Positions 13,156 through 64,000 of a stretch of 64,000 bases of DNA are shown piece after piece; the first letter of the stretch is position 1; each line of letters starts with the position of its first letter. The translations under genes were made by a program, and so were the position numbers. Source of the DNA: Balanoglossus misakiensis. Lineage: Eukaryota; Animalia; Hemichordata. The notes beneath the pieces are model-generated. The model saw only the letters and a program-made list of their open reading frames with translations. It did not search any database and had not been told where the DNA came from. Where the stretch lies: positions 3,675,434 through 3,739,433 of the forward strand of contig CM082593.2 in the NCBI GenBank assembly GCA_040954595.2. Direction: 5' to 3'.

Positions 13156-14041
13156 AGCACACTGCGAAATAGGTTTCGCGTCGCTCCTTTTAATTCCAGT
13201 GTAGTGTGATAAATCTGTCGTGAAGTGCCTGTGTGATTTACACTCGATGAGAGACTCGCCTTGTCTTGTCATGATTCCGACAAACCATGTTATACACGCT
13301 GACTTTCTTCCCTCGATTTGGGAGCCAGAGACACGACTGTACAATCAATATCACGGGATCGAAGCTCTTTCGTCTTAACTAAGTTAATACCTCGGGTGTC
13401 GTACGAGGGCTATTGAGAATGCAAAATGACGTAATCTGGTTATGCGTTCGGGTAATGGAAAAGTAGTGGTCTTTCAAGAGCCTCCAGCGAGAGCGACGTG
13501 TTCTTCAGTTAGAATTCCATTCATCCGTCCTTTTACCGAATATTGCTCAGATAGAGACTTTTTATAGTTGAACGATCCACGTTAGTTTTCAGTGTATTTC
13601 GCACAAAATATGGGACTTGAAGTATGAGCGAAATCTAGGCATGTTCGTAGGGTATGGGTACTGCCTATGTGATATGAATATTACTTTTATTCCGACTGAC
13701 TTTTATCCTGCCCACGTTGTACGTTTTTTTTTTCTGGTATCATGCAAAAGTAAATAAGATAATTAACTGGTATTTGAGTAAAGGCATTGGATTTCGTTAA
13801 GCTAAATGTCATATTCCCTTGATCCCTTGCATAAGAGTCAGATCCGGATAAGGAAAACTGGTTTGTCACTTCAGGGTTTTTAAATATATAATTCATCATT
13901 TAGATGGCGCGCTTCCCTAGCTGTGGTTCATAATATTAATAATTAATAAAATGTCCTCTTACCACAATCAGTCTCTTTCAATTGGACAGAATTCTTGCAA
14001 ACTTAACGTTCTTCGTTTTCTTTCAGTTTGCTGCACGAGGC

Positions 14042-15175
14042 ATGGATAACGTAACGGCAGCTATGGTGGGGAATGGTACGGAGGGGGTTGGACTGAGCAC
14101 GGACCAAGGACTGACCGACTTGGAGATGTACATGAGATGGCGGGCCTGGTTCATCTCCGCCATCGCCAAAATGCACACGCCGCCGCTAGCGACGACGACT
14201 ATCAGCGTAGCGTTCATGTTCCTGATCATCGCCGGCAACGTGTGGGTCATCGCTGCCGTCGTTCGCCAGCCCAAGCTCCGGAACTCGGCCACGAACGTGT
14301 TCATCGTGTCCATGTCCATCTCGGACCTCATCATCGGCGTGGCGTTCATCCCGATCCACGTGGCCGACTTCGCGTACGGCCGCAAGATGAGCGACCCGGC
14401 GCTCTGCTTCGTGACGTCTTTCCTGCACAGCTGCGCCATGTGCGGCACCACGGCGTCGCTGATATGCATCGGCGTCGACCGCTACCGAGCCATCGTCCAC
14501 CCGCTGACGCCCAAGTGGACGGCCGGACAGGCGGTCAGGCGGAGCGCCGCTGCCTGGTTCGCCTGCGCCGTGTACTCAGTCCAGGTGTACGCGAACTCCG
14601 GTATCAAGACTACCAAGGCTATATTTGGCAACGAGACGGTGATTATCTCCGAAGAATGCAGCGTAATTCGGAAGGACATTGACAAGTGGATGCGAGTTGA
14701 ATACTTCTGCATGTTATACGCCATACCGTTAATCATACTGTTCGTCCTGTACGGCATCATGATAAAAACGCTGTGGTTCGGACGATTTCCTTCCAACAAC
14801 CACAACCGCAACAAGAAGAAGTCGGTGAAAATGTTAAGCTTCGTGGTTCTCCAGTTCGCGCTAACGTGGGGACCCCTGTACTCCTTGCAACTGTATTACA
14901 CACACGAAACCAACCCCCCGTACGATGCCTTGCTATTTTCCAACACCCCGGCCAACATCACAATAATGATATCCTTCTGCAACAGCTGCATCAACCCCGT
15001 CCTCTATGCTTACTACAACAAGAATTTCCGCAAGGAATTCACCAGGATGTTCCCTTGCCTCTACAAACAGTCTCTGGCCGTGACAGGCTCCACCAGGACG
15101 AGTTCGATGGGAATTCAAGGAACACACGTGTCTACCGTGAGCACTTCAACGTTACTCGACGTCGGACGGGTTTGA
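14042..15175 (+). CDS. Class A (rhodopsin-type) GPCR, neuropeptide-receptor-like (RFamide/QRFP/NPY-type group), 377 aa, single coding exon
   Basis: Seven hydrophobic segments with TM1 GN, TM2 SISD, TM3 C...DRY, TM4 W, an ECL2 Cys, TM5 YAIP, TM6 FALTWGP, TM7 NSCINPVLY and helix 8 NFRKEF. N-glycosylation sequons NVT and NGT at the N-terminus. Splice acceptor ttttctttcag ends at 14026, so the real start is the ATG at 14042, not the TTG at 13982 given by the ORF track. The ligand subfamily cannot be determined by eye. Confidence 0.95.
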   Translation: MDNVTAAMVGNGTEGVGLSTDQGLTDLEMYMRWRAWFISAIAKMHTPPLATTTISVAFMFLIIAGNVWVIAAVVRQPKLRNSATNVFIVSMSISDLIIGVAFIPIHVADFAYGRKMSDPALCFVTSFLHSCAMCGTTASLICIGVDRYRAIVHPLTPKWTAGQAVRRSAAAWFACAVYSVQVYANSGIKTTKAIFGNETVIISEECSVIRKDIDKWMRVEYFCMLYAIPLIILFVLYGIMIKTLWFGRFPSNNHNRNKKKSVKMLSFVVLQFALTWGPLYSLQLYYTHETNPPYDALLFSNTPANITIMISFCNSCINPVLYAYYNKNFRKEFTRMFPCLYKQSLAVTGSTRTSSMGIQGTHVSTVSTSTLLDVGRV

Positions 15176-27200: not shown

Positions 27201-30200
27201 GATAAACTTGTTCAGAAACTGTCTTAATCTGAACAAACTTTCTTTATAATAAATTGTATCCAAACTGCATCGTGATGGTGATGGAACTTACGAATGCATC
27301 TGTCGTGGTGTTTAGTTCCCTCATGCCTTGTGGAGTGGTGTTCCGGACATGACTTGCACGACCTCTTGCCAGCTTCATCTTGATAGTAACCAACGGGACA
27401 GCTGACACACTCGCCGTCCTTTTCATACGTTCCACGAGTACACTTCACTAAAATAACGTCAAAACAAACAAATCAGTTTTTAACATATTACCCAATGTAG
27501 GCACCACCAAAAATTGTATTAAAGTGGAGCTTAATTAAAGGAAAATACAGTATTCTCCAATGGGTAAATACCAATGGAGAGTGACTGAAAACAACACTCA
27601 CAGCAAGCGCAGTCCTTCATGGTGTATCCCCGTGGACAGTGACAGCCACTCTCTATCAGCTTGAATTCCGTCTCCTGGGTGACGTCGGGACAGTACTCCC
27701 ACAGATTGGATTCCTCGGCAACGACGAGATCCTTGTTCTGCCAGTCTCCTACTTTCTCGGCTACACTGTCTCTGCACTCCCTCAGCTCGGTGCAGTCCAG
27801 CTGAGTTCTGTCACCAGTGACCACCAACGTGAAACGGATGTTGACGGTATACTATAAAGAAAAACATAAGGTACATGCATACCAATTTTCAAATCTATCT
27901 GACCTTTAGTTGTTGAGTTTCTTAATGTTGACCAATTTCACAAGTGTTCGATGTCGACGGACATACAGACCTGCTCTTTGTTAGTTTTTAACTTGGTTTA
28001 TACTGAAGTACTGTACATGTAAATGTAACACAATTTTTCATTGGGTGGTAACTCTTTCTGATACTGACTCAAAAGCAACACACATTTTCATTGGCTACTC
28101 ACTCTATCTTTGAGGTCAGGGCAAATACACGCTGGTTCATCACATTCTTCAGAGTTGCGCGAGCCCCGGCCCCTCCTTTTGGAGTTTCCACTGCATTCAT
28201 TGCTCTTCGTAGACTTCTTTTTCTCTCCACTCTCAACATCACAGTAACATTCGCATTCCTCACTGCTTGCTCTGGAGTTCCTGCTCGCTCTGGAATTTCT
28301 CCCGCGGCTGGTCGCGTAAAACCCGCATACCCGTCCGCTGTTGTTCTCTTGGCTTGAACGGCGGCTTGACTTACGGTCAGCTGATGCTGAAGATCGGGAA
28401 CCACTTTCCCGCTCCCGGCATTTGGGGCGTTCATCTTCTCCTGAACAACTTCTTCCTCTGCCGTTATTCCCGGACGCCCTGCTGTTACGGTTTGAATTGC
28501 CATTGCCGTTGTTGGAACATTCATTTGAACGGCTGTTAGTGTTACTACTACGGCTGCCAGTGCGGCTTCCAGTGTCATCTTCGTTACTGCTACTTCTTGT
28601 GTCGCTGTCATCGTCTTCTGAACACCTGCTTCCTCTGCCGTTATTCCCGGACGCCCTGCTGTTACGGTTTGAATTGCCTCTGCCACTGTTGGAGCATTCA
28701 TTTGAACGGCTGTTACTACTACGGCTGCCAGTGCGGCTTCCGGTGTCACTGCTACTTCTTGTGTCGCTGTCGTCTTCCTCTGAACAACTTCTTCCCCTGC
28801 CGTTATTCCCGGACGCCCTGCTGTTACGGTTTGAATTACCTCTGCCATTATTTCCAGAAGCCCTGCTGTTTCGATGTGAATTGCTACCTCTGCTGTTGGA
28901 ACAGCCACTTCTGCTACCGCTGCTGCTACTGCGCCCTCCGCAATCGCACCGTCTTCCGGATTCCCGACTGCTGCTTCCTCCGCTGCTACTTTCCGTATCC
29001 CGACTCTCGGTGCTGCTCCTGGTTCCTGAACAGTCGCAGTCATTGCTTCCAGTTCTTGTGTTCCTTCCACTTCTTTCCTCCCCACTTTCTGAACAGTCGC
29101 AGTCGTCTCTGGATGCCGTGTTTTCCCGACTACCAGTGCTTTCCCGACTTTTTCCTCTTTCCTGGCTTGCCCGACTATTTCTGCTATTTCTGCTATTGCG
29201 ACTATTCCTGCTATTGCGACTATTCCTGCTATTCCGACTATTTCTGCTATTCCGACTATTCCTGCTATCCCGACTCCCCGTGCTTTCCCGACTTCCCGTG
29301 CTTTCCCGACTTCCTGAACTCTCCCGGCTCTCTGTACTCCCACTTTCTGGCACCGTTGGCTAAATATAACAAGAAAACACAGAAATTCACAGAATTCAAA
29401 TCATGCACCATTTACAATTTCATTTCTCACACTGTACATTGTATGAGGCGTACTTGGTGTACACATCTCACCATGCCCATATAAGTTGATATTTTGAACA
29501 TTAAAATCTATATTTATACCTCTTCTATTTTGACAACTTCCACAACAACACGAAGGTCGACATTCTCTTTAATGTCATCACTACAGTCTTCTAGCAAATC
29601 TGCCTCGTCGATGACCCTCTGTATCAGTTCGTTGTACACTGCCATGCAGTCCTCTCCAATTTCACAATCGGCAGAGTAGTTGGCAGACACTACGACTCCA
29701 CAGTCTGGGACCTCATACGCTGAAGCGAAGGGTAACAGAACAAGTTTCATCAGGTTGAAAGGATAATTGAAAGACAGAACTCTCAATATATTGAAAACAA
29801 AGGATGATAAAGTCTTTGGTAAAGTTTAATACAATTAAGCATATTTCGATCGACAAAATTATTTATGTGAACGTACGTGCACATCCAGGCACTCGGTTGT
29901 TAGGCAGCCATCCATTGACATCAGAGCAGACATAACTGTTTGATCCTGGGATCAGCTCCGGCAATGGCTGCACAAAACCATAGCCTTCCTGGCAGCCCAC
30001 ATTGCAGGAGAAGCCACCTCCAATTGGAGCGGCACAGGTGATGTCTCCATGTGGGGGCAGCATCAATGACCATTCTGGGCAGCCCTTCACTGAAATTACA
30101 GAAGTAATAACTTCAACTCATCTGTATTAGACTTTCTGATTGGTTATTGAGCCGTGTCATGTCAGCAAGGTGGAGTTTAAATCTAATTGGCCGAGTGACA

Positions 30201-33200
30201 TTCAACTGATAATAAAAGCAAAATTTATGATAAGAGAGGTACATTTTTTCAATTACAAGTTTGCGTTTAGATTAATAGTGAAGGCTGAGAGTATTCAATG
30301 CAGCTTCTGAAGCCATCAAATTGTCAGGTGCCTGTTCAAGGCGTGGCCTGGTCAAATACAAGACAGTAGCTGAGTTTTGACTTACGAACAACGATGAGAC
30401 CGAACCAGCATTCACCGACGTTTCCTGCTTCATCATAGGCGGCCACCCGGACTGAAATATACTGGAAAGTCCAGAGGACCAGTGTCTCTTGTATGTACTC
30501 AACACGGACCACTCCGACGTTATCAGTAGCCGTCACTGAATCCAAATAAGTCTGCAAAGTGACATTGACTGATTGCTCTTCTGTCTCTATGACGACCACC
30601 GCTGGACATTCGATCTCTGGAGGTTCAACATCTGTTGGAGAAGTAGCTTTCTGTGATTATCATGTATTATCCTTCTGTCTGCTGTCTGTCTCCGTTTACA
30701 AGCCAATTCAGGTTTCCATCACTTAACGAATGTTTAACTTGAAATCCAAATCTATTTCTAACAGAAGTGAATGAAAAAGAAACAAAACATCTATTCAGAA
30801 AGACAAATTCTTACCAACACATGTAGGGACCTCTCCACTCCAGTACGGTTGCGGAACGACCACATCTTCAATCGTGATGTCTTTCAGGCAGTCAAAGGAT
30901 GCCAGTGTGATGCCCAGAGATACGTAAATGGTACTGCTAGGATCAATTACTATAGTGATTTCTGTCGGGATGGTGCCATTCGCAATGGAGGTGACAAGGG
31001 CAGTATAGCTGTGGCCTGCTGCCAGGTAGAAGGACAGCCAGCTGGGAACGTCTGCATCGAAACATGCTGTGACCTCTTCCCATGCATCAGGCGTCACGCC
31101 CATGGGGATGTCGACGCGCACGCCTTGCCTGATGGAGTAGTCGTACTGGATGTAATGCACCTGGATGGAGTTCAGGCGATCTTGTACCTCGCCGGTCATC
31201 TCCAGGCCGAGCATGTACAGAATCCGGCAAATGCAGAAGTCCACGTCTCGAATCTGCACCTCCAGATGCTTGAGGTCAGCAGGACCGCTGACCAATGCGA
31301 GGAACTCGGTCATCAGGGCACCGTCCAGGGCGTCGACGATGTCAGCGTACAGGGCTGGAAAGTCGATGGCGTCGATGAAAGTCACCCTGATCTCCCGCAC
31401 GCAGTCGTTGACGACGAGGCCGTAGGATTCTACGACCTGAACGAGACCTTGGCTGCCGTATTTGAGGGTGTACGCAAACCGGTGCAGGTCTTCGGGTCCC
31501 GAGTAGAAAGCTGAGATTCCGGCTAAGATCGCGTCATCAAAGCAGGTCCTGATGTTCATGTCCAGAGCTACAAAGTCGATGTGCCACTCAGGTTTGAATG
31601 GAAGGTAAAGGATGCCGTCTCCAATGTCGGGGCCACTGCCTTCATCCCCACCATCGTTGTCGCCATTGTCGTATTTGACGTACGTCACTTCGATTAAAGT
31701 CAGGCAATCCAGTACGTCAGTCGGCACAGTTACAGTTACGCCCAGCAAGGATGGAATTTGGCAGACGCAGAAGTCTTCTGTCCTAATGTACGATTCATAC
31801 GGCTTGAGATCGGCAGGACTGGTGACATAACCATCGAACGCTACCAGAAGTGTGGTATCTAGGCAACCTCTGACGCCGTCATACAAAGCTGTGTAGTCGA
31901 TCTCGTCAATGTACGTCACGGTGATCTCCCGGACACAGTCATTGACGCCTAGGCCGAACGACTGCAAGATCTGAATCACAGCCTGGCTTCCTTGTCGGAG
32001 AGTGTCGGCGAAACGGTGGAGGTCGTCGGGTCCGGAGTAGAGGAAACTAATACCAGCCAACTGCCATCCATCATAGCAGTACCTTATGTCCATGTCCAGG
32101 GCTACGAAGTCAATACGCCACTCAATCTCTGTACCGCCGTCACCAGTGCCGGGATCACCATCTCCGGGGTCCGGATCACCACCACCTTCTCCGGGGTCCG
32201 GATCTCCACCACCGCCATTGTCACCACCGCCATTGTCACCACCGTGATGTTCCTCGTATGTGGTGTACGTGACTTGGACACCATCCAGACAGGTATTCAC
32301 GTCACCTGGCAGTGCTACGTTATAACCGAGCAGGGTCGGAAGCTGGCAGATGCAGAAGTCTTCCTGTCTGAAGTTACTTTCATACTGCACCAGATCAGCA
32401 GGGCCCGAGATGGCACTATTAAACAAGGTCGACAATGTGCTATCCAGGCATCCTTTGATGTCGTCGTACAACACCACGTAGTTGACCTCATCGACATATG
32501 TGATTGTGATCTGTTGCACGCACTCATTGGTACTTAAGCCAAACGCTTGCAGTAACTGAATAATGGTCTGGCTCCCGCTTTTGAGCGCGTCGCCGAAAGG
32601 TTGCAGGTCTTCAGGTCCAGAGTATACAGCTGAAATGGTCCCCAAGGTGAGACTATCATAGCAGTTCCTGATTGCCAAATCCAGAGATACAAAATCAATG
32701 CGCCACTCGATTTCAATACCACCATCACCACCACCATCACCTCCGCCACCTCCAGTTGAATATTCAATACCATCCAGACAAGCTTCAATTTCTGTGCTGA
32801 ACTGATCTGCGGAATCGGCGATCAAAACTGCCAAGAATCCCTCTGCGTCCATTGTGCCCTCTGTGAATTGGTTCAAAGAGTCTGCATATACAGAAGGAAT
32901 TGTGAAAGTACTCCCCTCAGGGTAGCCCTGACACACGTTGATAGCATTCAGTAGAGCCACTTTTTCAGGTGGAAGAGTGATCGCTTCGTCCGCCATTATA
33001 CCTTCGACGTCTATCGCGCCAACGCAAGCCTGCTCCTCCTCGGTCAAGGCGTCAAGAGCATCATTCGCTAAAGCATCGACAAACGCCCTTACTTCGTTGA
33101 CGTCACCATTTGGGTTACTTATAATGACGTTGTATTCAGCGTCGTACCCGAATGGAAATGAAGACGGAAATGTTACAGTGCCATCTGTTATATCTCCTCC

Positions 33201-36200
33201 CCAACATACCGACACTTCAGCAAGTACCTCAAAGACTTTTGGTGGTACTGTGTGAGCCTGCCTTCTCAATCGCTTGAGACCACCGGTGGAATGGATGCTG
33301 GTCACAGATCGTCTATTCCGAGCTGGATATTCTGTGTTGTGAAAATGACCAAAAAAAAAAAAAGATCATGACCATCGCAATCAACAAAAAGTAAGCATAT
33401 CCACAGAAATCGGTTATCCAGCGACAGACAAACTATAGTGACCAACTGTCAGGCACTCACCGCGTTCGACAGGCATCACATGATAGCCATCCACAGTGCA
33501 CATGATAGACTGGTGGGGTTTGGGGCCGTAGCCTTCTTGGTCACACAAGAAGTGCAGTTGGTTGCCGACATAGTACTTCCCAAACATGCTGTACTGCTGG
33601 CCGTCATCTGGGCTGCCTGGATCTTCACATGTTAACACTGCATGGGGAGCATGAAAAAAATAGTTGATGATTGATTTCTATTGGAAGCGCCATTTTTCTA
33701 CTTACGTTTCCCTTTTTCATAAAACTGGCGTTAGTTTTGATAATCTTATGTATGTAGTATAAGTTGGAAAAATGTTGACTGCGGAGGTTATTTAGAAGAG
33801 GTCAACTTACATTTACAGTAAGGCACTGAGTCACTCCATGAACCATCTTGTTGACAAACTCTCTCTGACAAGCCAATCAGCTCATAGCCAGGATTGCACT
33901 TACAGATGACGCGGTCACCCACACGCATGTCTTCGTAGTAACATTTGGCATGCTCAGGGAGTGATGGGTGGCCACAGGGAATTCCTGAAAATAATATCAA
34001 TGATTATGATTTATGAATCGACGTCGGAAACACACATACATGTACCCCCTCCGGTACACACAAACCAAAATTAAGTGTCGAAGAAAGAGAGTAAGTAGTC
34101 TATGTTCTTACGTTTGCATTCTGGTACAGGACCAGTCCAGCCGTAGCTATGGTAGTCGAGTCTTTGACACACAGACACTGCAGGGCCGTACAAAAGATAC
34201 CCATCGTCGCAGCTGTAACTCACACTACTGAGGTAGCCATAGTTACCGGTACCAGGGTCCGTAGCCACCCAACTTCCATGTTCAATATTCGGTGGGTCGG
34301 TGCATGTTGCCACTGAAGAAAAAATCACAAAAGTTGAAACACATTAATTTACGACCTAGACAGTTTTTTTATTTTATTATTCAATCTCAAAGCATACACT
34401 CAGTTTTTACTTAGACACTGTCTTGACAGGAGCATAGACACTTTCACTGTTACCTTCTATGCTTGGAATTTCAAAGTCAAAAGTTCCGTTGGCTGTGCAT
34501 GTCAGTTTGTATTCGCCAGAGACACTGTAGCTGGTCTGAGTGACGATCTCGAAGAAGAAGTTGTACGGAATGCGCACTGACGATTCTCTGTACTGGCACC
34601 CACAGCCCGGGGCGTAAACGGCAATGCCGAAATTGAAGGTTACGTCCAGGCTGCACATCACAGCTGTAGACAGGGAAGAAAAACACTGACATGAGACCAA
34701 TTGTGCCATAATATATATGGTGCTGCATTAGCTACAATATTTGAAGAACTTTACAGGCAAATTTTTGGAACGCAATTTTTGATGGCCATATGGTGAATTT
34801 CCTCATTTGACGTTACTTACGAACACAGGTTCTGTGCAAAACATAGAGACTGCGGGCATCAGAGCCATCCTCCCCATCAGGCAGAAGGAATCCATTGACG
34901 CCATCCGCATCAAAGAGAGTGTATCCATCATAACAACTGCACACGTAGGAACCATCTCTGTTTTCGCATTCCTGGTTGCACAGGTTCAAGCTGTCGTCGG
35001 AACACTCATCAATATCTATCAGGATGGAAAATATGAATATTTAAAATAATTGTTGATGACAGGTACATTTATTAAATTAATAAATTCATTTTCAGCACGG
35101 TCTTGAGCGGACACTCACCAATGCAAGTGACGGGATCTCCCTCGGGGTGGTGATAACCATCAGGGCAGCTGCAGTCAAAAGTTCCTGGTAGATTGGTGCA
35201 TACTTGCGTTGAATCACAAGGTGCGTTTTCAGTGCACTCGTCAATATCTGGAAAGTGTCAACAAAAAGCCAATACTCATGAGACTTCATATCATATGCAT
35301 AGGCTTTATCACTTAAACATTCTATAGATATCTATAGAATTGTGCAGTCTATTCTATTCATGAGACTTCATATGCATAGGCTTTATCCCTTAAAACATTC
35401 TATAGATATCTTCATCTGCAATCATATGATAGATATTACTGGTACATAATCCACCTCAAGCTTGTGAAATACATGTATATCCTTACCAACACAAGATGTC
35501 AATTCGTTATCCCAGCTGATAGGGCCTGAACAGGTTGACGTGGTAACAGAATCGGATGGCAGTCTGAATCCATCCTTGCAATGAAGGGTCACTGTATCAC
35601 CAACTTGGTAGTCATCTTCGGGGTCCAGATAAGAACTCACTGAATCAAAGAGAGGCTCGATACAGTACGGGCCTGTACAGAGAAATAATAATAAAAATAA
35701 TAATAAAGAATAATTGTAAAGAGCCTAATCATACATGTATGTTAACTGTAAGGCATGGAATAATAAACTTCAGATAAAAACAAAACTATTTCCTTGTGAT
35801 TTTATCTCATTTTTCTAAAAAAATGATAATATCTGAACACTCACTTGAACACCTTGGCGGATCATTGGACCAAGTTCCATCACGTCGACAGAGCGCGATA
35901 CTCCAACCGAGAACAGATTTACCATCATTGCAGCCGTACACAACAACACTGCCAAAAACTGTTGAACCAACTTCTACAATGAAGCCTCCCTCTGGAGCAA
36001 CCGGCTGAGGGCATCCGACAGCTGTAAGAAGAAAACACAGTCAGTGAAACTGACACTTTTGAAGCACGGACTGAAACCGATGGAATGACACACTTTTGTC
36101 CCTCACGTACCTGAGCATTCCTGAATTGGGCCCCATGTGCCGTCGGCTTGACAGGAGATGGTAACTTGTCCAAGATCTGCTCCGTATCCATCAACACATT

Positions 36201-47319: not shown

Positions 47320-47588
47320 AAACACACAGAAACTTGAACCAAAAAAGGTGTGAAATGTTAGGTTTTATCCGTTTTATAAGACTTTATCCGGTTTATGGTA
47401 ATGTTCAAAGTATTAGCTTTGGTTATCGGATCATGTCCAGAAGCCATCTTGATTGTCATAAATACACAAAGAAAATTGAACCAATAGAGGTGAAATGTTG
47501 GGTTTTATCCGTTTTTATAAGACTTTATCCGGTTTTTGTGATGTTGGAAGTATTAGCCTTGGTTATCGGATCCTGTCCAGAAGCCATC
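47320..47588. repeat. Tandem duplication, unit about 140 bp x2
   Basis: gtgaaatgtt.ggttttatccgtttt.ataagactttatccggttt...agtattagc.ttggttatcggatc.tgtccagaagccatc occurs twice. Confidence 0.9.
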
Positions 47589-49393: not shown

Positions 49394-52300
49394 TCAATAG
49401 TAATAGACTCTTTCACCATTTGCTATAATGACTTCATCTGATGGTATAAGTCTGTGATCTCGAACCCACGTGGTTTCAGGATTTGGACATGCAGTTGACT
49501 CAAAGTCAAAACTGTTTTCTGACGAGAACTCAGAAGCAAAGTCAAAGTCTGGAACAGTGTCCTCTTGGTAAGCGTAATTATAGCGGTATTTGTGGTCCCC
49601 CGGCAGGGGGAAGGGGGGTTGGGAATGGCCGGTCATTGTAAATTCACTAACTTGGTGATTGTTGTCAGGGATGGTAGAAAGTCTTCTTGCGAAGATGAAC
49701 GATTCCGTCATTGGCACCTCTGGGCGCATCGCTTTCAGTGACGTCCTCTGGACACACCTAGAAGACGAATAATGTGATCTCATTTCAATCATACATCATT
49801 CTGTTGTATAATACATTGCTGTATTTTAGTTTAGTCAATCTACCTCAAATTGCAACAGAAGTTTTTTCTTCAGAATGCTAGAATTGACTTACTTTCTGAA
49901 TACTACAACTATAAGCATGATGACCAGGACACTGCCCAAGGCCCCGAAAACAATCCCAGCAATGAGACCAGCTTCCTCCACGGCTGAAATCACAAGTAAA
50001 CATTTCCATGATGAGAACATGATGGCATATCCATCAGTGTTTCATTAAGATTACTACATTGTAATGGTTATAAAATTCAGCAAGCGTCATTCTACATAAT
50101 TAGAGATAATGTAGGTTTACTCTTCCCTGCTCTTCAACAGAGTTGGATGTGTCAATGCTGGTGTAAATACTCACATGTATCAGAAATGGGACGTTTTTCA
50201 CACTGAGTTCCAGATGTACCACTTTCGCAGACACAGACTGGAGCTCCAGATTCATCCACATTGCATACACCATCATTCTGGCAGAATGCCTCACATGGAT
50301 CTAGAGTGAAAAGTATAAAAACTCAATTTGCAGGCAGGGCTTCTGAGTGGTGAACCAAATGACTTGGTACCGGTAATTTTGGTTTATACATACATACATA
50401 CATACATACATACATACATACATACATACATACGATATCTATCTATCTATCTATCTATCTACGGTATCTACAAACCTTCTTTGCAGTCAGTAACTGACTG
50501 TGTTCCTTGTTTGCTGGTGGTGGTTCCATAAGGACACTGTGTGCAGATACTCTCACCATCAATTCCATAAGTCCCCCTGGGACACAACTCGCACACACCA
50601 CTCAGTCCAAGATAAGTGCCAGCCTCCAGACATACTTCTGCAGAATCAAGGGAATATATACAAAGGATGTGAAAAACTTGTCAAAGAAGACTATGATCTG
50701 TTGTAAAAAATACTTATATTGTTTGCCACACTTTTTATCTTTGCTTGTTGAAAAATGGAATATTGTTTGATACAACTGCATTCTAAGAACATATTGTAAT
50801 CATCTGGTAGACTCAAAAGAATATGAACAGCATTGTATATTTTGGGAATCATGGTCAACAAAACAAAGTTTTCTACCTCTGAAAAACCATGTTCAATCAA
50901 AACTTAAAGATTTTGAAAACTTCACTTGAAGAAATCCTCTTTTACATAAAGGCATTTGCGTCACAAACACCTCCAGTTTAACAAAGACTTAGGTGTGGTG
51001 ACACATCTTGACTGAACAGCCATTCATGTATCAAAGCTTGCCGTTTCTGAAGAATTTAACTCAATCTCTGGGTACAAAGTACCAACTAATATATCACAAA
51101 CAGAAGTAACACTTGGGGGTTCTTCAATGTGACCCCCTGGCCCATTGGACAACACCCACACATGCGTGCCCCATCCTTTCCAGATGTTTCTATAGCAACA
51201 CATCCAGTGTGTTTAATCATAAATCTCACCAACCAATTTGAAATTAACGGTAGTACAGCCTGGCCAATCAGAATGTTACTTCTCCTTATAACTGAAATGG
51301 CCACTTCCCTCCCTGAAAACAGTAATATCACGTGTCAAACAATGGCAATTTTGCTGAGTCAAGCTCAGTAGAAAAGACAGGGCCCTTACATGTTCTGCAT
51401 GGTCAAACCTCCAGAGAGCAATATATTCTCTCCGTTAGGCCCACACATAGTTAATGAAATTCTAAAGGAATTTTTGCCGCCCACAAAAGTGAGCCACAAG
51501 TGGGTTGACCTGACTTGGGTGTGGTTGCGCCTGTTATCTGGGTCAATCCTTTGATGGGAGTTCTACATGAGAGGGCTCATTGTGTGGTGTACATGTGTAT
51601 TTAAGGCGTTACATCGTGGCAGTTTCTATCAAATGAAACAAATGAACTGCGCAAGGTATTGATACAAATACATGAATTAGTACTGGATGAAGTGGCACTA
51701 AGCTAGTGCTGATTTAAGTCTGTCTAACTTAACATTTTAGACAGAGACACAGGCAGGCAGACAGGAGACAGAAATGAGGGGAAGGGAACAGACAAAAAGA
51801 CTGACTGATAGCGCAGCACTGAGACTTTCGTTGACTACTCGAGTGTATATAGAAAAACCCACACCAGTACTAGTGATGTCAATGACATCATCAAAACTAT
51901 CACACATGACAACACATGCACACTGTGACAACTAGCAGTGCTGAGTGGGCTATTACAGCTTTCACTGGTGCTGTATGAGTTCAAGAAAGGTCCATCCCAT
52001 AAAGACTACTCTCTTACAGCTTCTTTTACAGCCACTGTAATGAGCTCAACAGGAGCAACTGCCCACCATTGTACAATATTTGGTTTATAGGTGTGTCAGT
52101 CTTGCAGTCTGCAAGACGTTTTGTGTTGTCCTTTCAACGAGAGATTCTTAAACGAAGTCTCTCCACACAATGGACACGTTCGTCGGTACCTGTGTGTACC
52201 ACGGGTCTGTGTGACCTTACAGACAGTGAAACGCGGGTACATTGACATAGTTCCATGGACATGTACTGTCAATACTTTATTGTCAGCGAGATAGAAACCT

Positions 52301-55300
52301 ACCATGGCAACCTATCTCGAAACACTCTGACAAGTCACTGACCCAAATGTAGCAACCAAAAAGGTCGATAGATTACTTTTAAGACATACTAATTCATTTA
52401 TGAACACTGATTAATCATCTGAGCTGTCTAATTGTTTTCTAGTCTCATCAGATAACTGGTTAACAAATAAATAAGTAAATTAACAAGGACTTAAAAAGAA
52501 GACAAGTTATACTGGGAATGTTCAAACAATACCTTGGCAATCATCTACTGATGTGCTTCCATCACCATCAGTGGACATGCCGGTCGGGCAGGCATTGCAT
52601 ACAAATTTGCCAGTCTGGTCTTGGTACATACCGACTGGACACGGTGTACATACATTGTCCTTGTTGTAGTGACCAGCACCACACATTTCTGCAGACAACA
52701 GAATATCACATACACAATTCAGAGTTTTCAAAAGTATCACAATAATCATCTACATTATATATCAAACCAAAACTTTTTCCCTTCATCCTCTGCAGTACTC
52801 TCAGTACAACATGTATATCATTTTTCAACTCAATATTTGAATACATGTACATGGACACACTTAATTGGCTGCAAAATAGAACAATTATCAAAACATTTCC
52901 CTTTTTTTATTGTATTTGTTCAGTTTGGTACTTCAAAATGACGAAGAGGTTTAGGAAGCCGGAAAATAATGACACTAGAGGGCGCTATATACCCATTAGC
53001 TTCACCTACCTAAGCATAGTGTGCTTGAGGTTGTCCGTCTACCCTGTGTTGTTGTGCCGTCGGGGCAAATGTGACACTCAGTTTGTCCCTTTGTGTCTTG
53101 GTATTCGCCAATGGGACACTGCTGGCATTTGTCACTCTGTGTGTCATGATACTCTCCGGGTGGGCAGTACACTGAAAAACGGAAATAAGAGATTGATTTA
53201 CACTTAATTAGTTGAAACTGTGCTTCAAGGAATCAGATTCGGACCAGGGATTCAGATTTGAAAAAAAAAATGTCAATAAAAGACAAATCTATTAATTTAT
53301 GTATCTGCTAACTATTAAGGGCCAGATGGATTCTTCAACTTTGTGGGGTTATAAGATTATTCTTACCACATAAGTCATTGTTTCTAACTGTTCCAACAGG
53401 GCACTCTACATTGACATTATATTGAAAGCTGTTGTAATCAGCTTGGCTTTCATCAATGTCAAGGCCACCACTGTACACTGCTTCGTCCAAGACTTCACCC
53501 ACATCTTGCTCATCGACTTGTGTAGAGCTGAAAAGGGCGAGAAAGTAGCAGTTAGGGCATGAATGAGAACATTGGTGAAATTTGAGGGGTAGGAAATGTA
53601 AACATACAGGTTCTGAATGGAGAAATGTGATGACCAACGAAAGTTGTCATTCTTACTCAGCATTGAACGTGAAATCAATGGTTGCCACAACGCTTCGCTT
53701 GCGCCTCCTAGTGGTAGCACCACAGGTCACCTGGATGTTGGAGAAGTCACACAAGATGGCACCACAGACCGTATAGTTGAGGGCACCATTCAGGGTGTTC
53801 ATTTTGCTCTTGAAGGCATCCACCAGTTCCTCGTTGGATCCGTCATCAGAACAGGTTGCAACGGTGTAACTGATGGTACCGGTGACGGAAACACCCGGTG
53901 TCTCTGCATCTGTAGTGATTAAGTACGTAGCAATGTCTCAGTGTATTCACAAATTGGAAGGGTGGTTTTCTGGCTTGTCCAGAATAATACACCAGATGGG
54001 ATTATATATAAAGTGATCAGCATTAGAGTGAAGTAAACTGATTTCAACCCCAGTTCCCTCTTTCGAGATTCAAGTTTACCATAGTCAATGATGTGGTTGG
54101 ACTGTACCATGGTGGTGAGAGGGTTAAAGAGTAGTGATTTTGAGGTCACTGACCTGCGCATCCTGGGAAGGAGAATGTCTCGTCCGGATACTGCGGGTCC
54201 CACACGCCCTCACTGCCGCACACGTAATGCGGTGCTGGCTGCGATGTGAAGTAGTAGCCTTCATTACAGGCAATATTACAGAATTGACCATACTGCCATA
54301 CGCCACATGCTTTGCTGCCTTGTACAGGGGCGGCCGGGTTGGGACAGTCGTGGGCTTTTGATGAAAAAAAAATTAATGTGAGTGACCTTTTTATTTTCCC
54401 ATTACAGATGGATCAAGTGGATCTACGTGTTAAAACTTTCCTCCGTTTCCCTAACCATGAGTTAGATCATGGCAGGCTATTGAAATCATATAAAACTTGG
54501 CAATTATACTTACGAAGAACATACACCATAAAATTACACTCAGCATGGTTTCCATCCGCATCATAGGCAATACAGGAGGCTTCATAGAGTCCATAGGCCA
54601 GTACAGTACCATTCGGTATTGTGCAAATCAGATTTGATACTTCGACGTTATCTGTGAACACTGGTTCCGTGTACACCACCTGGACCAGGTGGTTTTCAGA
54701 GTCTATGACTCGGACCACACCAGGGCAGGTGTCAGCAACGAGTTGCGGTGGTTCGGTGTCTGGACAAGGCAAAACATTGAGAATTTTAAATGAAATGATT
54801 CTGACAGAAAGTGCCATGAAACCTGTCGAAACTGAACCCCGTCAAACCAATATTTAATGGATAAAAAATATTTAATGGATATGAAAAGTGAATGAAGTAA
54901 TTTTACCAATTGAATTCTCCGGGCATGCGCTGCCAGTGTAGAACACACCAGGTGGACATTTCTCGTCGTTTCCACAGAGTGACACTTCCACCTCATGAAC
55001 GCAGCCAGTTGAAAATGCCAGGAAATCCAGCCATCTCACCACCTGGCCCGTTCCAAAGTCGCACGAAGTTGACGCTTGGGTGATTGTGGCTGCATCCATG
55101 CCAGTATCAAAGACGGAGAAGTGACTGATTTCACCGTGGAAGGCATCAGTGTCATCTGTTGATTGGTAGGGGCGACCGAGTACGACTTTTAATCTGGGAA
55201 TAAACAATGGAAAATGACGGTATTTTATATGTGTTTTTGATACATTTTATGGTATCCTCATACTGAAACTGACTTTCCTAGTCAATCAAGCCTATAGTGA

Positions 55301-58300: not shown

Positions 58301-61300
58301 TATGGGCAAGAACTTTATAATGGACAACAACTAGTACTTTATTTTACTTCTTAACTACAAAAACTGACCAACACTGAACTATGAATTTACATTAGTCAAT
58401 TGCGAAGATCACAATCCTAAGCTAGATAAAATATAAATAGTGTAGAAAGGTCTAATGACCTTTTCCTCTGCATGCAATCAGTTTAATACACAGGAATAAT
58501 TTACGAGAATCGTAAATTCATCCTTACCAATACAGTCGGTAATGTTCTGAGAACCTTCTTGCTCAGTGATTTCATTGTCAGCACACTCTAGGCAACTGGT
58601 GGAACCTATAGAGTTCTGGTAGGAGTCAAGATTACATGGAGTGCAAGGCTGTAGACCTGTAGCTGAATAACTTCCAGCAGGGCAGGATTCTGTCAATAAA
58701 ATTAAGTTTGCATGGGAGACCTGCATGCCCTGTTGTGCCATCTGCATAAACTTTCATGATATTTCTACCTGACACAATATAGGCCTAAACAAACAAAACT
58801 GAAAGGCTTAAACTCGATGGTGTAGTTTCATTCTTATTCATGGAGCAGCTGTGACCATACCTATGCATTGCGATGATCCGGGACTACTGTGAAAACCATC
58901 TGGACAGGACTGACACGCCCTTCTACCATATCTGACAGATTTTGTGTCTTCTGGGCAGACATTACACGGCATCAGGCCAGTTGCAGAATAACTTCCTGGT
59001 GGACACAGCTCTAAGGAAATAGATGATAATGGTGTTTAAGAAATGATCAACAGTAACATTCACTGACGGTGGAACTAAAAGAATCAGAGACACTTGTAAC
59101 TCCAATCTTGCTCTGTAAACCATTAAAGTCTCTCTGAGTATTGATGAAAAACATCAGATATCTCACAAATGAGGGCAATATATACCTAGGCATTTATCAA
59201 CACTTGTGCTTCTTTCCTCCAGAGTGGAGTAATGGTCAGGACACAGTTTACACGAACTCTGACCAGCTTCATCTTGGTAAGTTCCAACAGCACAGTCGAC
59301 ACATGCATCGTTGCGTTCACTCGTTCCCGCGGGACATTTTACTGTTAAAATATAAATTAGCCGAAGAAATACATCATAGATTTTTCAAATTTCCATTACT
59401 GTCATATATTATGTGCTCCTTTACAAACAGTGATTAAATGACATGTATAATTCAAACAGAATTCAAAAACTACTTTTACTATTTTCCTGAGATTGCAGGA
59501 ATACACACTAAATCTGAACTTACGACAGTGGTCATTACGCATGCCGTAGCCACTGAGACATCGACAGGAGGTCTCGCTTTGATTTGGAGTCTCCTGGAAT
59601 CCGTCATTATTGAGGACGAGATTAGGGCAGGTGGTGTTGGCGATTTCCACTGTTAAACCGGTGACCTGGTCACTGATATGATCTGACAGCGAATCCAGAC
59701 AAGATTCGATGTCGTCAAGGTCCACGTCTCCAGTCACCTCAAGAGACACTTCAACAGTCACTGTGATCTACACGAGAAAGACAAAGTATTAGTTGTGTAC
59801 TATATGGTAATTACAGCTTTTCCCATCTAGTGGTCTTTCAGTGGGGTTCTTGGACTTTTCAAGAAGTGAATGAATTTATAACTCACCTTAGACTTGTCCG
59901 CTGCTATCTGGAGATTCAAACTTATTGATATAGTAACTGCATTCCAGATGGCCAGACTACACAGTGGAGGAAATTCATTCTGGGCTTTGGTTTGAAAAGT
60001 ATTTTTCAGGGCATTGCTGTACATGCTATAACAGGATGACTGTGTTGCCGGGGTAACAGCATCAAAGATACCCTCCAACTCTCGTTGACAAGTAGACTTC
60101 TCCATTGCTGACAATAAAACGGATAAAACATCCAGTCATTCACGGACACCAAGGAATTTCATTGAGAGTAAATAGTTACAGAAATGTCTTATCCACATGG
60201 AGTTAAAGCTCGTTGTTTTCAGTGTTCAACTCGTAACGAATTGAAATGTACACTTACCGACACACTGTGGCACTCGGTTATGGGGAATCCACCCGACTCC
60301 AAATCTGCAGATGTAGTAGCCACCTGGCTCGGGCAACGGCTGCACAAAGTCTGTGTTTGGCGGGCAGGTCACGCTGCACGAATAGCCAACTTCGGTTGAT
60401 GTCTCTATCAAGGGTGAACAGCTGAGCTGGTCATTGGGTACACCAAGACTCCATTCTGGACAATCCTTGGCTGTAAAATAATTTGAGCCCATTTTAAGCA
60501 TTTATCTCCATCTACCGGTACATGGTGTCTACATAAACCAATTGAAAGATTCCAGCTGTGAGTTAATACCTTGGACATCGATGTAAAAACTGCAACTGGC
60601 GCTGTTGCCTGCTGCATCAGTGGCTGTCGCGGTAACGGTCACAAAGGTCAGAGTCTGCACAGCCGTCAGATCTTCCACCGGTGGGTCGTAAGAGACAGAC
60701 TCGACTCCCACGTTATCTGTTACATTCACTGAGTCATACTCATAGGTCACTGTTTCTTCAGTATTTTCGGTGAGTATGGTTCGGGTCGGTGGACAGGATA
60801 ACCTAGGGGGCTCAACATCTGAAAGAAAATATCACAAATAACCTTGTTTTACCATCAAGTGACCAGGTGGTGTTCATGTTGGTTTAACCTTTTGACCACC
60901 ATGGTTCAGCCCAAACTGATTGTTATCTATGGTAAGGCTAGACCTCTGAAGAGGGAACTAGGGGCGAAAGGGTTAAGGTATATATTATGTTATGACATTA
61001 TTTGATAACTGACCGACACACTCTGGTACAGGCCCACTCCAGTACGGTCCACCACTCTCTCTTCTCCTTCTATTCTGAACATCAAGGCTTGGATTTCTTG
61101 AGGAGTCCCTCCGGCGGCGAACTGAGAAAAAATGATAAGTAACATTGCTTTGAAGCTTGGAATTCCATTGAAATTCCCATGAAAATATACCAGAATTGCT
61201 TTTACATGTGTTTCAAGCAACTGTACTGAAAGATACTAGAGGACAATGTATTGTCTTACCTTGTCCAGAAGATGCATCTGCAGAGATGAGAAATAGAAAA

Positions 61301-64000
61301 ATAAGTGAGAAATGACCACACTATTAATTGTAATCTGAGAACTTCTACAGTTTATCCGAGATTTTCACCTGGGGTATTTGAGGATTACCAGATGGCGAAA
61401 TCAATATCTTTCTGAGAGAAAAAAAACTTTATACAGGACTTCTATATACTTTCAGAGGTATACACAAGTTAAATGGTCACCTGCTGTGAAACCATCCATC
61501 ATACACTCTATGTGGTTGTGTGGAGAAGGCATGAACCCAGCGTCGTTGCACGTGAAGTGCACCACACTTCCAAGGAAGTAGCTGATATTCGATGCGTGCT
61601 GTTGACCGTTATCCGGGGCGCCGGGATTGTCGCATGATCTCACTGTTGAGAGGAAAACCAAAGATTGGTATTAAAGGATGTACAGGTCGCAAGAATATCT
61701 GTGCTTTGGCTCATCAACAAGGCAGAGGTCAACTAGACGTGAGTTTGTAAAATACGGTGGCCACTTACATTGACAATGTGGAATATCTCCACTCCACGTT
61801 CCATTCAACTGGCAGACTCTCTCCGCTGACCCAAACAACTGATAACCAACATTGCACGTATACACGGCTTCATTCCCCTCAGTGGTTTGGTTAAACTGGA
61901 CATGTCCGTGGGCTGGGCTTGTGAGAACTCCACAATCCACAGCTAGGAGGGAAATTCACAAACAACTTAAAGTGTGGCATGTTGTTAATGCAAATGAAAA
62001 AAAAACTTACTTGGTACATGTTCATAACGATACACAGTGCAAATACAAAAGAGCAAGTGCAAAAGAAACTTACTGCACACTGGTAAAGGTCCACTCCAGT
62101 CATAAAAACTGTCAGTGACTTGCTGGCAAATTCGCAGTCCTGGACCAATCAGGAAGTAGTTTTCATCGCAGCTGTAGAGAACAGTGCTCTGGTAACCATA
62201 GCTGCCTGTCTCACTCGATACCCAACTCCCGTTGTCTATATCTTCTGGAGTGCTACACGTGGCAGCTAAGTGAAAGAACCATCTAATTAGTCGATCGTGC
62301 GCACGAACTTGTCATTGGTCAGAAGTTTATCACATGATCTCATTTGAATAAAGTCTACCTATTGGTCAAATGAACAATGACGCCTCATTGGTCAGAAGTT
62401 TATCACTTGATTGAAATGCAACCTGTTATTGGCTGAAATGAAGCCCATGGTTCTAGTTCCGAGAGAAGCGTGAAATGGAGGACTTACCAATACACACTGG
62501 AGGAGAGGCATCAAAGAATCCTTGGGCAAGACATGTCAGGGTATTTTCACCTAACACAAGGTATCCTGGAGTTGGTATGATAGTGATAGATGTACTGTAT
62601 GGAATGACAATACCATTTTCTCTCTGGACAGCTTCTGGAGGATAATCTATGATGCATGGACTTGGTTCTTCTGGTAGTTCACACATCACAGCTGCAGATA
62701 ATGTTCAAAATTTTAAAGAGAAAATACATATAAACATTTATTTTACTTTGGTTGGATTATTATAATGCAAGTGGCGCCAAAACTACAATTTTTCAAGTAT
62801 ATACTTACACACGCATGTTCTTCCAATAATGTATGTGTCAAGGGCATTGAATCCAGTCTCTCCGACTGGTAAGTAATATCCATTTGTGCCGTTTTCCATA
62901 TATAGAGTGTATCCAGTATCACATGAACAGGTGTAGTCACCTTCAGTGTTTACGCAGTTCTGGTTGCACAGGTTCAGAGATGGGTCTGAACACTCGTCAA
63001 TATCTGTTAAAGGGAATGTGAAATGCAATGAGGGGTGTACAAAACAGAGACTTGTCATTGCAGCGTTTGGAAGTTCGATACTGGTATAGCAGTCAAGTAT
63101 ATGTAGGGAGCCCTTTCGTTGGGTGCTTACCTTGACAAACAATTGGTACAAGTGGGTTGATTTCATAGCCTGTGTTGCAGAGACATTCAAACGAGCCAAT
63201 CAGATTGTGGCAAACTTGAGTGACATCGTCACAGTTGTCAGTACCTTCGATACATTCATCTTCGTCTGCAATATAGACATATATATATATTGTTGAGTCT
63301 TTTAACATTTAAAAAACAATATTGTTATCATTTATTTTGATTTGTGCTCTTGATTTCACTCACCCACGCATGACGTCACCACTTCTGGGTCCCACAGTGA
63401 CGCTCCTTCACACTTCGCCGTGGTAACCGCACCGCTGGATGGGAATGTGTAGCCATCTTTGCAGACTAGTGTCACAGTGTCATTGACCCTGTGTGGTCCC
63501 TCGGGTTGAAGCATTGTTGTTGTGCTGATCACAAACAACGGCACACACAACGCCCCTGCAGGACACAAGTAACACAAATACATGTACAACTTCAGTAATA
63601 TCATAAACAGGAAACATTTTACTATGAGAACCACTCCAGTTTGTCCTACATATCATTACCACCATGAGTATTACACGTAACACTTACTCTCACAGACGGG
63701 AGGCTCACTGGACCACTGCCGGTTGACTTCACACGTTGCTATGGTTGTGCCTACAGGTTGGAATCCCTCGTGGCAGCCATATTGGATAACACTTTGGTAC
63801 AGGAAGCCCGTCTCACTTCTAACATCCCAATTGGCGATAAAACCATTCAGTGGAGGGATGGGGTCATCACAAATGATCTCTGGTACAGAAATTGTGAAAT
63901 CAAAACATTAGATATGTATTGGTCAAATAGTCCAGATTGAGTTCAAAGACGAAAAACTCTAAAAAACTGACAATCTTTCAGATACTTACGTTGACAGTGA
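49394..64000 (-). CDS. uif: Uninflatable-like transmembrane protein, tandem paralog B (5' end lies beyond the window; 38 exons seen)
   Basis: Exons: 63990->64000, 63688-63879, 63364-63555, 63131-63265, 62809-63003, 62488-62691, 62074-62265, 61769-61942, 61481-61642, 61260-61277, 61014-61121, 60570-60818, 60258-60470, 59887-60107, 59524-59767, 59186-59341, 58861-59010, 58528-58689, 58179-58269, 57696-58069, 57333-57527, 57072-57220, 56683-56882, 56411-56535, 56003-56263, 55672-55837, 55357-55542, 54907-55193, 54514-54759, 54154-54354, 53657-53909, 53367-53527, 53010-53171, 52533-52688, 50476-50637, 50175-50300, 49893-49983 (TM LIAGIVFGALGSVLVIMLIVVVF), 49394-49757 (tail ending ERVYYY*). Exon order and phases match paralog A, and many exon lengths are identical (195, 174, 213, 156, 150, 162, 125, 201 nt). 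No stops or frameshifts seen. Confidence 0.9.
50387..50461. repeat. (TACA)n(TATC)n microsatellite in a paralog B intron
   Basis: Directly visible. Confidence 0.95.

Follow-up and report, generated by a model that had tools for sequence, protein, structure and literature searches.

Uif is called a conserved insect protein in the accessible part of PMC13178913, and the accessible part of PMC12867482 reports that fly Uif is localized apically and binds Notch, besides mentioning a presumed cleavage site without giving its position. We found that a 64,000-nucleotide stretch of the acorn worm Balanoglossus misakiensis (hereafter the window) contains two tandem multi-exon genes of one family, both on the minus strand, namely paralog A (approximately 41000 to 18500) and paralog B (from beyond 64000 to approximately 49400). 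Paralog A shares with Uif the order of CTL, LDLa, three CUB, four sushi, two EGF, four sushi, HYR, and sushi domains, followed by SEA-like domains, Ephrin_rec_like Cys-rich repeats, an EGF array, LamG, and a transmembrane segment (Uif domain list from the accessible part of PMC3340373). The eighth sushi domain of paralog A, which lies after the CTL, LDLa, and three CUB domains, is split by an 849-residue loop containing two furin-type motifs and eight or nine units of a novel repeat. We consider it fairly probable that this loop is cut, so that sushi 8 would be a two-chain domain with the repeat array as a free arm.

Exons were checked individually from their coordinates (28 in A and 15 in B), and 26 window exons were scanned singly against Pfam. 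For A, this gave the order CTL, LDLa, three CUB, four sushi, two EGF, sushi 5 to 8, and HYR, with CUB matched in five of the six CUB half-exons and with a degenerate sushi 5 that had no Pfam match. The EGF array, LamG/pentraxin, Cys-rich repeats, and a single transmembrane segment (read from the sequence in A) were present in A and in XP_070544274.1 of Ptychodera flava, an uncharacterized RefSeq model of 3,371 amino acids that is the likely orthologue of A. Unlike Uif, A, B, and the P. flava protein lack both discoidins, and F5_F8_type_C gave no match in the large A exon, in the 26 scanned window exons, or in the P. flava protein; furthermore, two HYR domains were found in A and two in the P. 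flava protein, versus three for Uif. Because both discoidins and one HYR are missing, paralog A is a derived Uif-like receptor, filed as Uif-like rather than as Uif, and a double furin-type cassette and, in A, the novel array further separate these genes from it. This places Uif-like proteins in hemichordates, beyond the insects for which conservation is described in the accessible part of PMC13178913. Another relative, SVEP1/polydom, has HYR, sushi, Ephrin_rec_like, EGF, and pentraxin modules in common with the window protein; it also has a furin site (accessible part of PMC13722417), which speaks for cleavage here, but it is secreted and has a vWA domain. The P. flava protein resembles A in the split sushi, both furin-type motifs, the unit family, and a second insertion in an SEA-like domain, and differs in having ten units plus a terminal one and in a model that lacks the N-terminal CTL/CUB part. 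No description of it turned up in the literature searched.

Sushi domains, also called complement control protein (CCP) modules, have disulfides between Cys1 and Cys3 and between Cys2 and Cys4. Sushi 8 of A is like canonical modules (CD55, CR2, and C4BP) in its four Cys residues, its Trp ahead of Cys4, and its modelled fold, whereas its Cys3-Cys4 spacing is 849 residues against 11 to 16 in canonical modules as well as in the 10 other window sushi exons, and two chains are predicted after processing. The extra sequence that splits this small domain is about 835 residues long. In accordance with the preliminary description, Cys1 to Cys3 lie in one exon, and the Trp and Cys4 come only at the end of the next, 839-codon exon, as we confirmed from the coordinates. 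The former exon matches positions 1 to 47 of 56 in Pfam Sushi with an E value of 0.0019, under the curated cut-off, and is 71% identical to its P. flava counterpart; the latter (2517 nt, phase 1/1, bounded by AG and GT) has a reading frame open from end to end. In P. flava the Cys3-Cys4 spacing is 961 residues, with 40% identity to A over 709 columns and with both motifs kept. Among 3,001 sushi matches in stored proteins (mostly SVEP1-, CSMD-, and CR1-like), five were open-ended, and no long insert with a distant closing strand was recognized. The split sushi 8 is real, conserved between two species, and unusual, and very likely the discontinuous sushi is the main form of A. That a module of about 60 residues accommodates an additional 850 to 960 at one fixed loop makes it an extreme example of domain-in-domain insertion.

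The preliminary description had further held that the far strand completes the upstream sushi fold, and a guided AlphaFold2 model agrees with this. The model covered P. flava residues 335 to 1427 on a 15-row alignment, and its predicted local distance difference test (pLDDT) values were 84 to 89 in the sushi half, about 90 in the closing strand and HYR, and 25 to 28 in the middle of the basic loop. Model residues from 1-2 to 1012-1013 superposed on complete CCP modules with 59 to 66 residues aligned at a root mean square deviation (rmsd) of 1.6 to 2.1, the best being CR2 (Z 9.2) and CD55 (Z 9.0, rmsd 1.8, 65 aligned). Thus, the closing strand is predicted to complete the sushi beta-sandwich.

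Furin and related proprotein convertases have the consensus R-x-K/R-R. Two such motifs with a 12-residue spacer, starting 14 to 17 residues past Cys3, are common to A, B, and the P. flava protein; this double cassette was overlooked in the preliminary description and is missing from the discoidin-filled loops of Uif-like open reading frames (ORFs), where R-x-K/R-R occurred in none of seven. Elsewhere, the motif was absent from the exons examined in A (2,712 residues) and in B (871 residues), a range that does not include the motifs of the downstream SEA-like domains; its background was 0.54 per 1,000 residues (127 stored proteins). The cassette lies in an exposed segment that is predicted to be disordered (pLDDT 25 to 28 in the P. 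flava model), the pattern of proprotein convertase substrates. It opens, and the closing strand ends, both the 839-codon exon of A and the 36-codon exon of B, and the array of A occupies the place of four residues in the latter. The double cassette in A, B, and P. flava therefore implies that the loop is likely cut and that the cargo is an arm rather than a closed loop; judging from the motifs, cleavage of the sushi 8 loop by furin appears likely. As a separate observation, the second SEA-like domain (approximately 21740 and 53700, minus strand) also has a furin-type motif (RRKR in A, RRRKR in B, and RRRR in P. flava), so that a further membrane-near cut is likely.

The matching exon of B indeed has 36 codons (108 nt), although the slot in B, previously called empty, holds more than had been described. 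No folded domain was found, but the spacer between Cys3 and Cys4 is 47 residues long including an overlooked candidate micro-exon (41 without it) and contains two RRRR motifs. The micro-exon has strong predicted sites, with an acceptor score of 14.2 and a donor score of 9.8; the corresponding leave-one-out medians were 8.2 and 8.0 in a splice matrix trained on 39 window sites assumed to be true. On these predicted exons, the B loop carries no folded cargo, yet it is not empty.

The cargo of A is an array of acidic, Cys-bearing units of about 78 residues. An iterated profile hidden Markov model (HMM) detected 8 units of 71 to 83 residues in A and 10 in P. flava, besides a degenerate terminal unit (5.5 bits in A and 6.4 bits in P. 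flava), and the unit order is a, b, (e, f) three times, and g in A and a, b, (c, d, e, f) twice, and g in P. flava. The array is acidic in both species, with 131 Asp/Glu versus 30 Lys/Arg in A. In a tree of 18 units, the P. flava duplicates paired mutually in all four cases (supports 91/61, 98/98, 94/97, and 98/97), and the first units grouped across species; 7 of 15 inner branches were unresolved. These sequences indicate that tandem amplification of the array was separate in the two species. The three e-f pairs are 46 to 56% identical, with a ratio of nonsynonymous to synonymous substitution rates (dN/dS) of 0.23 to 0.27, indicating that the repeat units are under purifying selection. A chance or intronic ORF was rejected as an explanation of the large exon by this ratio and by the P. 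flava orthologue. The model of e2-f2 (mean pLDDT 78.7) showed two groups of helices, four or five in each, and short strands where they join. Each unit has two to four Cys residues, and in most units one lies in the first helix and one in the last, which suggests, on the modelled fold, a disulfide staple joining the first and last helices.

Database searches identified a single relative of this cargo. Only one protein among 7,991 scored candidates was related to the insert, and a search of 1.84 billion representatives gave two matches, the second of which lay mostly on the Gly/Asp/Pro linker (E 1e-5); at the sequence level, the cargo thus has one relative, the P. flava protein, in that collection. 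The unit profile matched only A and the P. flava protein among 3,412 local targets, no Pfam family matched the cargo at E values up to 1, a sequence search of PDB with the insert gave linker matches only, and an ESM Atlas search with one unit pair gave no usable match. For e2-f2, Foldseek found no match at E values up to 0.001 in PDB or viral models, and structural alignment placed none of 48,161 chains at a Z of at least 5 (best, 4.0). Several identities were tried and rejected: a FA58C/discoidin domain, given no Pfam F5_F8_type_C match and a mostly helical rather than beta-barrel prediction; weak fold matches to HAD cap domains and Plasmodium P113, not accepted as relatives; and a transposon or horizontally acquired gene, for which no prokaryotic or viral relative was found, although this is weak evidence. 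Saposin-like domains have six Cys residues in about 80 residues, a pattern that units with two to four Cys do not show, and saposin was absent among the 50 matches listed in the structural comparison of e2-f2, in which the best Z of any chain was 4.0. A missing fold match does not prove a new fold; the array is a new extracellular repeat family and probably a new fold variant, presumably part of the apical coat of a deuterostome that secretes mucus.

Comparison with Uif-like proteins revealed another state of the same loop. With a degenerate motif that represents the beginning of sushi 8, 19 metagenome loci were retrieved (several of them near-duplicates), all of which matched the slot region of one ORF, L014; the discoidin-like stretch was reached in 18, and one ended too early. 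Seven long Uif-like ORFs from metagenome contigs, inferred to be arthropod and 51 to 89% identical over the slot, likewise have sushi 8 interrupted at the same place: Cys4 lies 169 to 175 residues past Cys3, with four extra Cys between them and HYR thereafter. Pfam F5_F8_type_C matched within this loop in six of the seven, and the eight-Cys spacing was the same in all. The preliminary description had placed a discoidin at about this position in Drosophila Uif, as a point to be verified, and the Uif-like ORFs, as distinct from the fly protein, verify it. In L014, the domain set is that given for Uif in PMC3340373 (accessible part), and F5_F8_type_C is present twice. The slot position is homologous, since P. 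flava residues 74 to 391 are collinear with L014 residues 977 to 1294 (E 1e-28). Among the 127 stored proteins, the top four collinear matches to the upstream flank were Uif-like (119 to 115 bits versus 111 for the next), as were the top six to the downstream flank (84 to 73 bits versus 40). The canonical Trp of the closing strand is kept in A and missing there in all five Uif-like closing strands compared. A protein search aimed at Uif relatives gave 396 matches, and multi-sushi and fibrillin proteins crowd the 120 matches listed. Besides, the first Uif discoidin sits in the first EGF stretch, after its fifth and before its last Cys, in all five long ORFs concerned (L008, L009, L013, L014, and L018, in which this EGF and discoidin together have 10 Cys over 192 to 209 residues); lying within an EGF Cys series, it makes both Uif discoidins look like loop inserts.

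The family comparison that the preliminary description had called for thus finds a discoidin in Uif-like ORFs, the array in A and P. flava, and no folded domain in B, so that one loop can be traced through three states, which require just two or three historical events. We propose that a proprotein convertase cuts both motifs in the secretory pathway and that the short spacer is released. The closing strand, together with the Cys2-Cys4 disulfide, would then keep the lectin-LDLa-CUB-sushi head attached, and the array would become the free N-terminal arm of the second chain, projecting sideways from the stalk. Each unit would be a small bundle of helices flanked by two short strands, with a disulfide stapling the first helix to the last. 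In such an opened loop the cargo ends need no longer lie together, and therefore the array would be free to grow, while B would be an armless two-chain sushi, otherwise alike. Possibly, the acidic arm serves in the apical matrix or mucus coat for multivalent binding or as a spacer, a role that we suggest tentatively from its sequence. As for the history, we see nearly an even chance that acorn worms replaced a closed discoidin insert by a protease-opened loop with an expandable arm of new fold, the paralogs differing in the cargo they hang there. If cleavage is true, this is one evolutionary route that frees an insertion site from closing back on itself.

Several observations weigh against this reading and have to be set beside the other explanations of the loop. 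Cleavage is deduced from motifs only, and an uncut loop, in which the array is a closed insertion like the Uif discoidin and the basic motifs have another role or serve an external protease, would explain why the units start and finish in short strands, a layout suiting insertion; discoidin-filled loops show that this sushi tolerates a closed insert without a furin motif. We nevertheless regard an uncut loop as unlikely in view of the two canonical motifs: three proteins keep them at the same 12-residue spacing, among them B, whose loop is otherwise bare, and they sit in a segment predicted to be disordered. The closure model was guided, because MAFFT aligned the ends of eight ordinary sushi domains with the closing strand, and so it speaks for compatibility rather than being independent proof; its predicted template modelling score (pTM) was 0.31, with 460 of 1,093 residues below pLDDT 50, including unit g beside the closing strand. 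The repeat fold model was built on a 4-row alignment with a pTM of 0.56, and none of the searches indicated what the array binds or does. In P. flava, too, the protein comes from a gene model; the exon structures of A and B are predicted from sequence, and the acceptor at 33331 is weak, its score of -0.6 being under all 39 training sites, although its poly-T tract falls just beyond the 20-nt scoring window. An in-frame internal acceptor at 31018 has a strong score of 10.1, the best of 67 internal in-frame AG sites, and 21 in-frame internal donor-acceptor pairs in the large exon pass the 10th percentile of true sites. These scores would fit an array confined to a minor or optional isoform, with most transcripts joining 33461 to 31018 or dropping an internal intron to leave a B-like short loop. 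However, one high score in 67 sites is weak evidence, 31018 falls where the DNA is rich in pyrimidines and the encoded protein sequence is conserved in P. flava, and the short form would halve unit g, leave one Cys unpaired, and lose both furin-type motifs. Since the repeats are also under purifying selection and the P. flava model includes the whole array, we find an optional array improbable. As a side observation, acceptor 31018 coincides with ten consecutive residues of unit g that are unchanged in P. flava, which may reflect protein constraint or conserved alternative splicing.

The preliminary description had viewed the loop as an exchangeable display site for a discoidin, nothing, or a novel module. 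Three contents at one homologous position were indeed found, the exons are in phase 1/1, and a second insertion, in the first SEA-like domain, likewise occurs in A and not in B. An actively exchangeable cassette, with tandem paralogs swapping modules by exon shuffling or conversion, is nonetheless very improbable: the array shares its exon with the motifs and the closing strand, and because this exon otherwise equals the 36-codon exon of B, the array is not a shuffled cassette exon. The cargo is the same in A and its orthologue, varying by internal duplication only, and no fourth cargo was found among the few relatives sampled. For the preferred reading of a cut loop, the discoidin may have been lost or gained, and the array may have been gained in A or lost in B. 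As for precedents, horseshoe-crab factor C has two chains, but the accessible part of PMC10672452 does not place the cut within a sushi and does not establish factor C as a two-chain sushi. Titles and abstract starts in the literature yielded nothing on an interrupted or cleaved Uif sushi, hemichordate Uif-like genes, or the repeat, whereas the nested discoidin may already be visible in Zhang and Ward 2009 or in domain databases.

Table 1. Features of the split sushi 8 and its loop in paralogs A and B (positions within the window)
Feature	Gene	Coordinates	Strand	Basis or remark
Exon with sushi 8 Cys1-Cys3	A	33461..33637	-	177 nt, phase 1/1
839-codon exon: furin-type cassette, repeat array, sushi 8 closing strand	A	30815..33331	-	
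First furin-type motif, RNRR	A	33309..33320	-	
Second furin-type motif, RLRR, 12 residues after first	A	33261..33272	-	
Unit a, divergent	A	32991..33239	-	Iterative HMM; groups with first P. flava unit, 97/99
Unit b, divergent	A	32754..32966	-	Iterative HMM
Unit pair e1-f1	A	32256..32708	-	Iterative HMM, dN/dS
Gly/Asp/Pro-rich linker between pairs	A	32124..32255	-	Sequence; short DNA tandem repeats 32156-32244
Unit pair e2-f2	A	31671..32123	-	Iterative HMM; folded alone, mean pLDDT 78.7
Unit pair e3-f3, f3 without outer Cys pair	A	31143..31589	-	Iterative HMM
Unit g, degenerate ninth, terminal; holds in-frame acceptor 31018	A	30852..31124	-	Weak profile match, 5.5 bits
Closing strand of sushi 8, Trp and Cys4	A	30816..30848	-	
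HYR domain, next after sushi 8	A	30386..30631	-	Pfam HYR, E 7e-7
Exon with sushi 8 Cys1-Cys3	B	61481..61642	-	
Candidate 18-nt micro-exon, phase 1/1	B	61260..61277	-	Splice scores only
36-codon exon: two RRRR motifs 12 residues apart, four residues, closing strand	B	61014..61121	-	108 nt

The second insertion of A is a 419-codon phase 0/0 exon (28103-29359, minus strand) within the first SEA-like domain, and B has no counterpart of it. Its composition (114 Ser, 72 Arg, 50 Asn, 21 Cys, and 21 S-x-E motifs) is basic, versus the acidic array. The insert is shorter in P. flava, where its Cys-rich end is conserved (48% over 103 columns, E 4e-18). Downstream of A, on the opposite strand (13943-15172, plus strand), lies a single-exon rhodopsin-family G-protein-coupled receptor gene (Pfam 7tm_1, E 1e-40). 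One intron of B (50600-52500, minus strand) is about 1.9 kb long, the other B introns being mostly 100 to 400 nt, and a tandem repeat with a 140-nt unit and 1.9 copies is located between B and A at 47322-47588.

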